DNA of 31,809 bases from the IMG/VR virus record IMGVR_UViG_2974787780_000001; one strand, 5' to 3'. The stretch's first letter is position 1. Each line of letters starts with the position of its first letter. The translations under genes were made by a program, and so were the position numbers. This document shows, in pieces, positions 12,053 through 30,064 of this stretch. The notes below the pieces were generated by a model, which did no database searches, was not told the DNA's origin, and saw only the letters and a list, made by a program, of their open reading frames with translations. This stretch comes from a virus. Lineage: Duplodnaviria > Heunggongvirae > Uroviricota > Caudoviricetes > Peduoviridae.

Positions 12053-12465
12053 TGACTGTGCTGGTCGTGTTGTTATCGCTGGCGGTGGCCGGTCTGTTTC
12101 TGGTGAAACACAAAAATGCCAGCCTGCGCGCCTCGCTGGACAGGGCAAATAACGTCGCCAGTGAACAGCAGACGACCATCACCATGCTGAAAAATCAGCT
12201 TCATGTTGCCATCACCAGGGCAGACAAAAACGAGCTGGCGCAGGTGGCACTGCGTCAGGAACTGGAGAACGCCGCGAAGCGTGAAGCACAGCGCGAGAAA
12301 ACCATCACGAGGTTACTCAATGAAAACGAAGATTTTCGCCGCTGGTACGGTGCTGACCTGCCTGATGCTGTGCGCCGGTTGCACCAGCGCCCGGCCTGCG
12401 CAGACGCCAGTGATTGTCCACAACGCCTGCCCGAAAGTGAGTCTTTGCCCGATGCCGGGCAGTGA
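12040..12465 (+). CDS. lysB: LysB (Rz-like inner-membrane spanin)
   Basis: 141-aa ORF with N-terminal transmembrane segment and coiled-coil-like body; P2 lysB length. Confidence 0.8.
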   Translation: MSKLMTVLVVLLSLAVAGLFLVKHKNASLRASLDRANNVASEQQTTITMLKNQLHVAITRADKNELAQVALRQELENAAKREAQREKTITRLLNENEDFRRWYGADLPDAVRRLHQRPACADASDCPQRLPESESLPDAGQ

Positions 12466-27158: not shown

Positions 27159-27239
27159 TGTAATTTATTTATCTGTTTGTTTTATAAGGATAAATTAACT
27201 AAAATGGCACCATCAACAAAACCGGAAGAGGTGCTCGCG

Positions 27240-27458
27240 ATGTTTCATTGTCCTTTATGCCAGCATGCCGCACATGCGCGTACAAGCCGCTATATCACTG
27301 ACACGACAAAAGAGCGTTATCACCAGTGTCAGAACGTGAATTGCAGCGCCACATTCATCACTTATGAGTCGGTACAGCGATACATCGTGAAGCCGGGAGA
27401 AGTCCACGCCGTAAGACCGCACCCGTTGCCGTCAGGGCAGCAAATTATGTGGATGTGA
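27240..27458 (+). CDS. ogr: Late gene activator Ogr (zinc-finger)
   Basis: ORF track 27177..27458; ATG at 27240 gives 72 aa MFHCPLCQHAAHARTSRYITDTTKERYHQCQNVNCSATF with a C-x2-C...C-x4-C zinc-binding pattern; P2 Ogr length. Confidence 0.9.
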   Translation: MFHCPLCQHAAHARTSRYITDTTKERYHQCQNVNCSATFITYESVQRYIVKPGEVHAVRPHPLPSGQQIMWM

Positions 27459-27468
27459 TCACAAAAAT

Positions 27469-27495
27469 AGCCCCTCAGTCGAGGGGCTTATTTAT
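27469..27495 (+). terminator. Rho-independent terminator after ogr
   Basis: AGCCCCTC-AGTC-GAGGGGCT hairpin followed by T-rich TATTTAT. Confidence 0.65.
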
Positions 27496-27500
27496 GGTCG

Positions 27501-27520
27501 ATGTGGACGCTATGTGGACA
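27501..27520 (+). repeat. Direct repeat pair ATGTGGAC (11-bp period); candidate integrase arm-type sites
   Basis: TGTGGACG at 27502-27509 and TGTGGACA at 27513-27520. Confidence 0.5.
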
Positions 27521-27575
27521 GTGGTTGACATAAATCCATTTATATCATCAGGTTAGGTGCTTTTTTGTGACACCA

Positions 27576-27602
27576 TCCCTGTCTTCCCCCACATGATGTG
27601 GG
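27576..27602 (+). terminator. Hairpin plus T8 (terminator-like) inside attP-like region
   Basis: CCCCCACAT-G-ATGTGGGGG followed by TTTTTTTT. Confidence 0.55.
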
Positions 27603-27697
27603 GGTTTTTTTTATCAATCACTTACATTGGTTCCCTTAAGAAAACAGCAACTTAAGAAAACCTATAAGGGACTGGAAGGGCTACAAAGTTCTTCGAG

Positions 27698-27716
27698 TGT
27701 GGACACAATGTGGACA
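27698..27716 (+). repeat. Second direct repeat pair TGTGGACA (11-bp period); candidate integrase arm-type sites
   Basis: TGTGGACA at 27698-27705 and 27709-27716, same orientation as the 27502-27520 pair. Confidence 0.5.
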
Positions 27717-27736
27717 CTCGGCAAGGATCTGATGCT

Positions 27737-28141
27737 TCAGTCGAGCAGGTCGATTTCCTTGATTTTTTGTACTGCACTAACCAATTCGTCAGGAGTGTAG
27801 TTAGTCGCATCAAGCTCTTTTACTTTTCCATCATCAAAAACAACGCGTAGCTTTTTGCCTCGTTGTAGATATGCACCAAAGACCCCAGCGACAGCGCCGA
27901 ATGCTGCAGTAGCAAATGGAAGAACTATGTTTAAGTATTCGGTTGTGCCGGCACCAAAACATATTGGCCCTCGTTGATATGCTATGGCAGCAGTGTCAAG
28001 CTCTTTGGCTAAACCAGCAATATTGCGTCCACTGGCCCTGCAATGGATTTTTCTTATGGAACTATTTGTCATCTCTTCAAAAATTCCTCTGTGTAAACGC
28101 ATTAAACTGGTCATCTCACTTTTTAAAGGTGTTATGACCAT
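27737..28141 (-). CDS. Hypothetical single-pass membrane protein (cargo gene between attP-like region and int)
   Basis: 134-aa ORF co-oriented with int and C; hydrophobic Gly/Ala-rich segment LNIVLPFATAAFGAVAGVFGAYL; AT-rich; start codon ambiguous (candidate ATGs at Met1, Met10, Met14, Met24 of the track ORF). Confidence 0.45.
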   Translation of the reverse strand: MVITPLKSEMTSLMRLHRGIFEEMTNSSIRKIHCRASGRNIAGLAKELDTAAIAYQRGPICFGAGTTEYLNIVLPFATAAFGAVAGVFGAYLQRGKKLRVVFDDGKVKELDATNYTPDELVSAVQKIKEIDLLD

Positions 28142-28292
28142 CCTCTGTGGTTACAACTGGTCGCTTAAGTTCATACCTGCCGAGAAAGCACAGGTTGATG
28201 GATTAAGCTTTGACGTCTATCAGGACGATGTTACATCGCAAGATGTGCTTATCGTCCTAGTTGATAATAAACGAACTATGTTGCCTGAATAA

Positions 28293-29306
28293 TTATCGAA
28301 TCGTTAAACCACCCTTTAGTGGGTTTAACGCTACTGCGTTTTGCAGGTAATCAGGCGCAAGGTGCGCATAGGCCATCGTCTGCTGAATGCTCGCATGCCC
28401 CAGAATCTGTTGCAGTGCAATTATGTTGCCCCCATTCATCATGAAATGACTTGCGAATGTATGTCGCAGGATATGGGTTGCCTGATTGGGTGGTATATCA
28501 GGTTTCACTCTGCGTAAAATCCCGCAAAACTTCTCATAATCAACTTTGAATAATTTGGCACTGGCCTCCTCTTTAACTTTTTTCTCCAGTTCCTTAGAAA
28601 TCGGCACGGTTCGCTTTTTACCGTTTTTGGTTTTCAGGAAGGTAACCCTGCAATTTGTAATCTGTGCTGGTTTTAGCGTGGCAACTTCCGTCCATCTTCC
28701 TCCAGTGCTCAGACATAAAAGCGCGACAAGTAAGTCATCACCAGCCAAAACATTTAACAGTTTTTCGATTTCTGCTTTTTCCAGGAACGTCATTTCAGGG
28801 TTGGCCTCCGTCAGTGGCGGCAGTCCGTGAATTGGGTGTTGCCCGGAAAATTCATCCAGTTGAATTAATTTTGTGAACATGCCGGATAATCGGTATATGT
28901 CACGATTTATCGTTGCAGCACTGATGCCATCACGTAGTCGCATGGAGCGATAATCCATCAAAGCCCTTTTGTTCATCCGGCTCACAGGTATATCACCTAT
29001 ACCGCTGATGGTTTTGAGCAGATGATTAAACTCTTTTGTCCCATGCTCGTGGTTTTGCCCGTGATATTTCCACCAGATGTCGAGCAATTCTGTCAAAGTT
29101 CGGCGGTCTGCTCGCTGGCCTGCCCATTCTTTCTGACTGGCATTGGCGATTGTGTATCGCTCAAATGCTACAGCCTCAGCTTTTCTTTCAAACTTCCTGC
29201 GGATGCGTTTTCCGTCGCGACCGCGAGGTCTAATGTCCACTTCATAGCGTCCATCATCGAGCTTCTTAATTGACATAAGAAAGCCCTCTGACGCTGTATT
29301 CACCAT
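28293..29306 (-). CDS. int: Tyrosine integrase
   Basis: 337-aa ORF (P2 Int length) with C-terminal catalytic region HILRHTFASH...GHASIQQTMAYAHL (H-x-x-R and Tyr nucleophile). Confidence 0.92.
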   Translation of the reverse strand: MVNTASEGFLMSIKKLDDGRYEVDIRPRGRDGKRIRRKFERKAEAVAFERYTIANASQKEWAGQRADRRTLTELLDIWWKYHGQNHEHGTKEFNHLLKTISGIGDIPVSRMNKRALMDYRSMRLRDGISAATINRDIYRLSGMFTKLIQLDEFSGQHPIHGLPPLTEANPEMTFLEKAEIEKLLNVLAGDDLLVALLCLSTGGRWTEVATLKPAQITNCRVTFLKTKNGKKRTVPISKELEKKVKEEASAKLFKVDYEKFCGILRRVKPDIPPNQATHILRHTFASHFMMNGGNIIALQQILGHASIQQTMAYAHLAPDYLQNAVALNPLKGGLTIR

Positions 29307-29345: not shown

Positions 29346-29639
29346 TTAACCAGTCTGTTTCCCGGAGTGGTCTGATTCTGTTGGTTTTTGCCCAATGTGT
29401 GCGAGAGCCGGCGCGATCTGACCAGCTTGTGGTGACGTATCACCAGTCATTAACCAGAGCGTATATTTTTTAAATAAAGGTGTATTTGTGACTCGCATCA
29501 CGATGCTGAGACCTGGGTCTTTATGCCCACTTTCGTAATTTTTGACTGTTCCTAGAGCTATCCCGCTAATTTCGCTGAATTTAGCCTGTGTTAAGCCTTC
29601 TGCTTTCCTAATCGCTTTCAGTTTTTCGAATGTCTGCAT
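29346..29639 (-). CDS. C: Immunity repressor C (helix-turn-helix)
   Basis: 97-aa ORF upstream of int on same strand; HTH LTQAKFSEISGIALGTVKNYESG; C-terminal ...KYTLWLMTG...GQIAPALAHIGQ resembles my recollection of P2 C. Confidence 0.85.
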   Translation of the reverse strand: MQTFEKLKAIRKAEGLTQAKFSEISGIALGTVKNYESGHKDPGLSIVMRVTNTPLFKKYTLWLMTGDTSPQAGQIAPALAHIGQKPTESDHSGKQTG

Positions 29640-29791
29640 TTGACAGTAACCTATTGGTGACTTATATTTCCGTCAAAAGGTTGTGAATTGGTGACCTTTT
29701 GAGTGTGTTAGCCAGTCCCTAGAAAGGACAGGGGCGACCTAGAAGGGACTGGATCTAATAAGGGTAACACGAAAGCAAAAAGGGCTAATCA
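29640..29791. promoter_or_regulatory. Immunity switch region (divergent Pc/Pe promoters with operator-like repeats)
   Basis: Direct repeats ATTGGTGAC at 29653-29661 and 29687-29695 flanking a TATATT element; inverted repeat CCAGTCCCT (29712-29720) / AGGGACTGG (29744-29752). Confidence 0.5.
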
Positions 29792-30064
29792 ATGGAAGTC
29801 AATGACTATGTGATTCAGTACCCTATTGATGCGGTACATACGGTTAAGTTTGCAGAGTTACTTGGTAAGCCAGAAACGGCTGTAGTCAAGATGGTAAAAG
29901 AGAATAAATTGCCAGTTATTGAGCTTCGTGATCCAAGTAAGCCGAACGCTCGTGTCGGTGAGAAGTGGGTTTTCATTCCTGAGTTTAATCGCGCTGTACG
30001 TGAGGCGTTTTATAACCGACCGGTTGAACAGCGTGATGCATGGCTTTTGTGGATGGGGTTGTGA
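29792..30064 (+). CDS. cox: Cox-like excisionase/transcriptional regulator
   Basis: 90-aa ORF, first gene of rightward early operon divergent from C; Cox-like size; motif KLPVIELRDP resembles P2 Cox as I recall it. Confidence 0.8.
   Translation: MEVNDYVIQYPIDAVHTVKFAELLGKPETAVVKMVKENKLPVIELRDPSKPNARVGEKWVFIPEFNRAVREAFYNRPVEQRDAWLLWMGL

Follow-up and report, generated by a model that had tools for sequence, protein, structure and literature searches.

Four copies of the octamer TGTGGAC(A/G), all on the plus strand and grouped into two pairs, lie between ogr and the integrase gene of a virus of the Peduoviridae (IMG/VR record IMGVR_UViG_2974787780_000001; its whole analysed stretch of 31,809 nt is referred to as the window), and we were interested whether this region is the phage attachment site attP, which part of it is shared with the host chromosome and which proteins act on it. 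In a megablast of positions 27177-28300, three Peduovirus records, Yersinia phage VB-YPM-18 (ON146440) and two siblings of it, were 100% identical to the window, and WPhi, P2-named records, fiAA91-ss and L-413C matched 27177-27726 at 93-97%. The local gene order is D, ogr, the attP-like region, a small ORF, int, C and cox, with ogr at 27240-27458 (Pfam Ogr_Delta), int at 28293-29276 on the minus strand (a WPhi-type tyrosine integrase with separate arm-binding and core-binding domains; Pfam Int_N and Phage_integrase), C at 29346-29639 on the minus strand and cox, encoding the excision directionality factor and Pc repressor, at 29792-30064 on the plus strand (Pfam Phage_Cox). Compared to the coliphage WPhi proteins, identity amounts to 98% for Int, 100% for Cox and 99% for C. 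We are highly confident that 27502-27716 is the attP of a P2-like (Peduovirus) phage, and essentially that of coliphage WPhi.

The first repeat pair, the P arm on the ogr side (27502-27520), consists of TGTGGACG at 27502-27509 and TGTGGACA at 27513-27520, and the second, the P' arm on the int side (27698-27716), of TGTGGACA at 27698-27705 and again at 27709-27716, all as direct repeats on the plus strand with 11 bp from start to start within each pair. The initial annotation had already given these positions correctly and had named the motif as the consensus of P2 integrase arm-binding sites with two direct repeats per arm; both agree with the consensus tgTGGaCa published for P2-type integrases, of which two direct repeats flank the core on each side (PMC3448106). 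The alignment to P2 and WPhi attP that it had suggested was performed, and the two pairs fell on protein_bind features that the P2 RefSeq record NC_001895 names 'Int P arm' and 'Int P' arm', with the WPhi region being about 96% identical. The P arm sites are identical in WPhi, L-413C, P24B2 and fiAA91-ss, and the P' arm pair keeps its distance to the core in attL junctions from five genera. Int of the window phage is only 51% identical to P2 Int overall, although the N-terminal 45 residues, which form the arm-binding domain, are nearly identical, and this explains why both phages have the arm sites in common while their cores differ. Additional TGTGGAC copies at 12416 (minus strand) and 25351 (plus strand) were rejected as arm sites, being single, unpaired and consistent with chance.

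As in a P2-like genome, attP sits between ogr and int, from which it is separated here by a cargo of 566 bp. Upstream of the P arm, and therefore not part of the recombination site proper, the terminator scan detected the ogr terminator hairpin at 27469-27488, scoring on both strands, with a folding energy of -18 kcal/mol and a z-score of -4.7. It aligns with the P2 feature 'rho-independent terminator for ogr transcript and F operon' of NC_001895. Between the P arm and the core, a consensus scan led to a probable IHF site on the plus strand at 27531-27555, composed of ATAAATCCATTTATATCA followed by TATCATCAGGTTA (27543-27555), the latter with one mismatch to WATCAANNNNTTR; the A/T-rich part at 27531-27548 aligns with the protein_bind feature for IHF in P2, to which 16/18 positions are identical. 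A possible second IHF site, TATCAATCACTTA at 27612-27624 on the plus strand, matches WATCAANNNNTTR with zero mismatches and straddles the right edge of the core. Beside the core, this motif recurs with small variations (TATCAA-N3-A/C/T-TTA) in the majority of the attL-type junctions of Yokenella, Citrobacter, Kluyvera, Erwinia and Escherichia, in contrast to the diverging neighbouring sequence. Further towards the P' arm, the direct repeat CTTAAGAAAAC (two copies 16 bp apart, 27635-27661, plus strand) overlaps a block AAAACAG-N3-4-CTTA, which is also kept in most of these attL-type junctions, and the repeat may serve for the binding of an accessory factor.

To locate the sequence shared with the host, 27459-27736 was compared to complete E. 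coli genomes by blastn, and a match was obtained in 5426/5426 of them. The match common to all corresponds to query positions 111-157, that is, 47 bp at 27569-27615 on the plus strand (GACACCATCCCTGTCTTCCCCCACATGATGTGGGGGTTTTTTTTATC), mostly at 100% identity, and represents the common core (the O region of attP), identical to attB. Lysogens matched either query positions 1-157 or 111-278, with break points exactly at the edges of these 47 bp. The initial annotation had staked its reading on a host sequence matching some part of 27521-27697, and it is within this interval that the core was found, with attL and attR junctions at its two ends. In strain ABU 83972, attB starts 24 nt past the stop codon of cpxP, in the orientation of that gene, and ends 78 nt upstream of fieF. 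Strain R1 carries the attL arrangement cpxP-core-P' arm-cargo-int-C-cox with the break exactly at 27569, and strain GF54 the attR arrangement D-ogr-P arm-core-fieF with the break exactly at 27615. A five-way alignment confirmed that attP, attB, attL and attR share identity only within the block GACACC...TTTTATC, and the crossover point would lie inside this 47-bp core, probably near 27591-27599 if the P2 core with its C-run/spacer/G-run layout is taken as a model. The core together with the P' arm (at least 80% of the length, reflecting an attL junction) was detected in 791/5426 complete E. coli genomes; the WPhi-type site is very commonly occupied in this species.

Outside E. coli, a scan of one genome per species detected the exact 47-mer at 22 loci in other Enterobacterales, the genera including Escherichia species, Citrobacter, Enterobacter, Salmonella diarizonae, Yokenella, Kluyvera, Erwinia and Edwardsiella. 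No exact match was found in Yersinia among the representative genomes, one per species, covered by the exact-match scan. The source phage was isolated on Yersinia pestis, and its attP may not work in this host of isolation, as the exact 47-mer is missing from the Yersinia genomes scanned, in agreement with a report that the sequenced Yersinia lack a matching attB (PMC3448106). According to the same report, the E. coli site used by WPhi for integration had been identified earlier and L-413C shares the WPhi attP core; Karlsson et al. 2006 is cited there for the host integration sites of P2-like coliphages (PMC3448106).

The core contains a strong hairpin, and its position relative to cpxP suggested its origin. 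Terminator scan and folding placed a stem-loop at 27586-27604 and a T8 run at 27605-27612 on the plus strand, with the hairpin folding at -16.5 kcal/mol within the 47-nt core. The initial annotation had been right that a strong hairpin followed by T8 exists between the repeats, but had put it at 27576-27602, whereas the real site is 27586-27612, 10 nt to the right; it had also described the repeat pairs as flanking two terminator hairpins, of which only this one lies between the pairs, the second (27469-27488) being upstream of the first pair. Its idea that the hairpin could represent, as a copy within the core, the 3' end of the host target gene proved to be correct, as the structure is a copy of the rho-independent terminator of cpxP, which is also the 3' part of the sRNA CpxQ. 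CpxQ is a 58-nt sRNA derived from the cpxP 3' UTR with the seed at its 5' end (PMC6755755; PMC9438474); it is Hfq-dependent, cut by RNase E and covers nearly the whole cpxP 3' UTR (PMC9438474; PMC6755755). With the last T of the run taken as its 3' end, a CpxQ of 58 nt would start with TTTTCCTTGCCATA, and on this counted-back placement the core comprises CpxQ nt 15-58 (the last 44 nt) and 3 bases past the T run. Host-side copies of the 47-mer in other Enterobacterales are always preceded by the 14-nt TTTTCCTTGCCATA, which we take to be the 5' part of CpxQ. A complete cpxQ gene on the phage was considered and rejected: the 5' 14 nt TTTTCCTTGCCATA are replaced by phage sequence and only the 3' 44 nt and the additional 3 nt are carried. 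The phage thus carries a 5'-truncated CpxQ fragment as its att core and not a cpxQ gene. Because the core is identical to attB, integration rebuilds both the cpxP terminator and the complete 58-nt CpxQ at attL. A gathering-threshold scan matched no Rfam families in the window or the attB locus, and CpxQ was identified via the cpxP annotation and the literature. The literature search, which did not extend to the primary WPhi papers, yielded no publication connecting CpxQ with a phage attachment site.

Could the same features have arisen without any role in recombination, as two terminators accompanied by a chance or regulatory repeat such as Ogr or C sites? Both hairpins are indeed terminator-like, and the bare number of TGTGGACR motifs in the window (5 found, 2.5 expected) is not significant. 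The paired layout, however, is not reproduced by chance: among 2000 dinucleotide-preserving shuffles, a same-strand pair spaced by 10-12 bp turned up in a single one, and none (0/2000) contained two such pairs within 300 bp. In addition, the repeats fall on what is annotated in P2 as Int-binding arms, and the prophage-host junctions map exactly between the two pairs. An assignment of the repeats as C operators was rejected, since these are a different repeat, ATTGGTGAC, present twice at 29653 and 29687 in the switch region. The repeats, the core, both junctions, the host target and the WPhi and P2 homology were all observed directly. Ordinary intergenic features are contradicted by the junction mapping and are a highly improbable explanation for this locus.

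A different objection would be that attP is located elsewhere, for example next to int at 28142-28292, and that the insertion has left the TGTGGAC repeats as a relic. It is based on the distance between the P' arm and int, as the P' arm abuts or overlaps the int 3' end in WPhi and P2 and is 566 bp away from it here. The intervening cargo extends from 27727 to 28292 (minus strand) between the P' arm and the int stop codon, is absent from WPhi and does not belong to attP; WPhi homology ends at about 27726 and resumes within the last int codons. It contains an ORF of 134 aa with a hydrophobic stretch (27737-28141, minus strand) and an overlapping ORF of 78 aa (28056-28292, plus strand). No significant match was found for either ORF in Pfam, PADLOC or PHROGs, with a weak Pfam match to Tudor_3 (E 0.036; 14.4 bits compared to the curated cut-off of 25.8) in the cargo ORFs. 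The segment is present in 12/5426 complete E. coli genomes, always as part of a prophage, and it is this rarely found segment that includes 28142-28292, the place which the initial annotation had named for Int binding should its own reading be wrong, and where neither a TGTGGAC copy nor a host match was found. Moreover, the E. coli R1 prophage with a 100% identical insertion has its host junction at 27569 and not near int. We therefore assign a next to negligible probability to an attP outside 27502-27716, and the site between the two arms is retained as attP in the following.

While Xis of lambda has no role in the lysis-lysogeny switch, Cox has one. The initial annotation had pointed out that the 11-mer AAGGGACTGGA at 27666-27676 recurs at 29743-29753, and both positions are exact. 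The match extends to a 17-mer, with ACCTATAAGGGACTGGA (27660-27676) and ACCTAGAAGGGACTGGA (29737-29753) agreeing at 16/17 positions, when 0.02 such matches would be expected at up to three mismatches. In attP, ACCTATAAGGGACTGGA is part of a probable Cox binding region on the P' arm side (27660-27685, plus strand), assigned by its match to the Pe-Pc repeat, in which AAGGGACTGG and AAGGGCTACA follow each other as tandem units of 10 bp. The related sequence of the Pe-Pc switch forms part of an imperfect direct repeat, CCTAGAAAGGACAGG and CCTAGAAGGGACTGG (29718-29753, plus strand), which is a probable Cox operator. Only two direct-repeat families were found in the switch, the other being ATTGGTGAC, twice at 34-nt spacing, which fits the centre-to-centre distance of the WPhi C operator half-sites (PMC1904263). 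WPhi Cox is known to promote excision in vitro and to recognize a 12-nt direct repeat in Pe-Pc (PMC5009727).

Comparison of two groups of phages with different Cox proteins provided further support. In L-413C and P24B2 the segment 27625-27695 diverges from the WPhi type, while core, P arm, candidate IHF sites and P' repeats are identical, and their motif AAGGGTTTGGAGTGGTTT matches their own Pe-Pc sequence AACGGTTTTGAGTGGTTT. Scoring each attP motif against the switch of its own group led to 14.5 and 13.0 in the two Cox groups, cross comparisons led to 8.5 at most, and 0/1000 shuffles reached the observed values. The P2 Cox footprint is annotated at the same relative position as 27660-27685, and the 10-bp tandem layout, with variable sequence, is also seen between the conserved blocks in attL junctions of other genera. 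The co-variation supports one switch protein binding both attP and Pc, with Cox as the obvious candidate. The proposal of the initial annotation that Cox binds at both places has therefore gained from the longer match and the co-variation as far as a shared site is concerned, and Cox as its binder is what we infer from these sequence comparisons.

The 17-mer in the P' arm and in Pe-Pc might instead be a recombination remnant, or a site of C or of a host factor, which we consider unlikely but by no means far-fetched. WPhi Cox reportedly binds attP more weakly than Pe-Pc, and the work of Ahlgren-Berg from 2009 is said to point to a 9-bp repeat in attP; this repeat may be CTTAAGAAA and not the 17-mer motif. 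Furthermore, co-variation alone cannot separate Cox from C because both proteins differ between the two phage groups compared, and C is set aside only because its operators, the two copies of ATTGGTGAC, are a different repeat. Against these readings, the motif changes in step at attP and at the switch in L-413C and P24B2 with Int, core, arm sites and candidate IHF sites unchanged, it is located where P2 has its Cox footprint, and the Pe-Pc copy belongs to the sole direct repeat there besides the C operators. In addition, the 10-bp tandem layout is that reported for Apl, the related directionality factor of phage 186 (PMC7498355). Cox thus remains the most probable ligand of 27660-27685.

The close agreement with characterized phages allows the individual elements to be compared. 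WPhi (AY135739) has an attP about 96% identical over 27459-27726, with the same 47-bp core, the same arm sites and spacing and the same candidate IHF and Cox sequences, and differs at positions 27499, 27529, 27628, 27633, 27636, 27648, 27693-27694 and 27707; the window phage, unlike WPhi, has the 566-bp cargo and changed last few int codons between the P' arm and int. P2 (NC_001895) shows the same order of ogr terminator, P arm, IHF site (a candidate in the window), core, Cox region (likewise a candidate), P' arm and int, and shares the arm consensus, the 11-bp spacing in the P' arm, the IHF-region sequence and the arm-binding domain of Int. In P2, however, the P' arm reaches into the end of int, the two integrases have diverged in their core-binding region, and the core comprises 27 bp, the 3' end of the cyaR sRNA gene, in contrast to the 47 bp from the cpxP/CpxQ 3' end in the window. 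The Cox boxes of P2, TTAAA(G/C)NC(A/C), also differ and are not bound by WPhi Cox (PMC5009727). Yersinia phage L-413C and Peduovirus P24B2 encode an Int 96% identical to that of the window and do not differ from it in core, arm sites of either side and candidate IHF sites, but their Cox is only 81-82% identical, their switch region is different and 27625-27695 is replaced. More distantly, 186 and lambda also use a tyrosine integrase with separate arm and core domains, arm sites flanking the core and IHF bending, the latter predicted for the window (PMC3448106), and a winged-helix directionality factor on helically phased direct repeats (PMC7498355). Phage 186 differs from the window phage in its arm consensus, tgccGCCActt, and in its target, a tRNA gene (PMC3448106). 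The attP described here is nearly an identical copy of the characterized WPhi and P2 systems and as such already known biology.

In this attP, the N-terminal domain of Int would bind the four TGTGGAC(A/G) sites, two in each arm, and its core-binding and catalytic domains would act on the 47-bp core at 27569-27615. A bend introduced by IHF, probably at 27543-27555 and perhaps also at 27612-27624, would allow arm-bound Int to reach the core. Strand exchange with the identical 47 bp of the host, immediately 3' of cpxP, would then insert the prophage between cpxP and fieF, with attL (cpxP-core-P' arm-cargo-int...) and attR (...ogr-P arm-core-fieF) as the resulting junctions. Excision would require Cox, most likely acting on the 10-bp tandem AAGGG-type repeats at 27660-27685, which are related to the Pe-Pc operator.

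It might be asked whether the choice of this target has regulatory consequences in lysogens, either via antisense read-through or via the CpxQ copy at attR; we regard such consequences as improbable. In a lysogen, the lysogenic operon (Pc-C-int and the cargo) points at the 3' end of cpxP, and the terminator scan predicted no minus-strand terminator between 27884 and the core. Any read-through would therefore run antisense to CpxQ, the envelope-stress sRNA. For the free phage, this transcript would be expected to end at the ogr terminator, given its score on either strand. A parallel is sib in lambda, where phage and prophage have int transcripts with different 3' ends. At the other junction, attR places a 5'-truncated CpxQ copy and its terminator downstream of ogr. 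If true, Cpx signalling or the occupancy of Hfq could be altered by either arrangement in the E. coli genomes with such prophages, about 15% of the total.

The understanding of the WPhi/P2 system is left unchanged by these results, and what they add is modest: that the core corresponds to the last 44 nt of CpxQ, that the P' arm holds a specific candidate site for Cox supported by co-variation, and that 791/5426 genomes are occupied. Nevertheless, a previously unannotated phage record gains an annotation of attP, core, arm sites and host target, and its natural lysogenic host would be E. coli and relatives rather than Yersinia.

Although the database record assigns the phage to Yersinia pestis, none of the Yersinia representative genomes scanned contained the exact 47-bp attB; it was found in every complete E. 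coli genome, and a prophage junction at this site was detected in 791 E. coli genomes. On the P arm side of attP, K-12-type E. coli genomes (blastn hits H39-H43) matched the window at 27469-27548 (query 11-90) with approximately 80% identity, a stretch that takes in the ogr terminator, the P arm and the IHF region. The match agrees with the cryptic P2 remnant already known, ogrK together with its att end, and shows that this part of the P arm side is conserved across P2 relatives having different cores.

The right edge of the core is spanned by a perfect IHF consensus, TATCAATCACTTA (27612-27624), and a slightly varied form of this motif is retained just 3' of the core in attL-type junctions of several genera (L008, L019, L020, L021 and L029, loci carrying the exact 47-mer). 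As the single annotated IHF site of P2 lies on the opposite side of the core, the motif at 27612-27624 may represent a second IHF site. Further into the P' arm side, two copies of the direct repeat CTTAAGAAAAC are placed 16 bp apart (27635-27661), overlapping an AAAACAG-N3-4-CTTA block which P' arms from other genera have retained. A 9-bp repeat in attP is reportedly mentioned in the abstract of Ahlgren-Berg 2009, and CTTAAGAAAAC may be this repeat. The intergenic region between C and cox contains two copies of ATTGGTGAC spaced 34 nt apart (29653-29661 and 29687-29695), a distance that agrees with the one published for O1 and O2, the operator half-sites of the WPhi C repressor (PMC1904263). 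The same region holds an inverted copy, CCAGTCCCT (29711-29719), opposite AGGGACTGG (29744-29752), with the first repeat of the Pe-Pc switch between them (29711-29752), and more AAGGG units at 29760 and 29780, a spacing of roughly two turns of the helix.

An inserted cargo segment of 566 bp (27727-28292) separates the P' arm from the stop codon of int. WPhi lacks this segment, and of the 5426 E. coli genomes just 12 contain it. It carries a 134-aa ORF on the minus strand (27737-28141), which includes the hydrophobic stretch GPICFGAGTTEYLNIVLPFATAAFGAVAGVFGAYL, and, overlapping this ORF, one of 78 aa on the plus strand (28056-28292); neither gave a significant match in Pfam, PADLOC or PHROGs. 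In P2-like prophages, the int-att interval has been reported as a minor defence hotspot (PMC13586616). A weak minus-strand terminator candidate was located inside the cargo ORF (27901-27884), no minus-strand terminator was predicted from 27884 to the core, and the ogr terminator (27469-27488) scored as a terminator on both strands. From these predictions, the 3' ends of the Pc-C-int transcripts would differ between free phage and prophage: in the free phage they would end at the ogr terminator, whereas in the prophage they would continue into the cpxP 3' UTR, antisense to the sRNA CpxQ.
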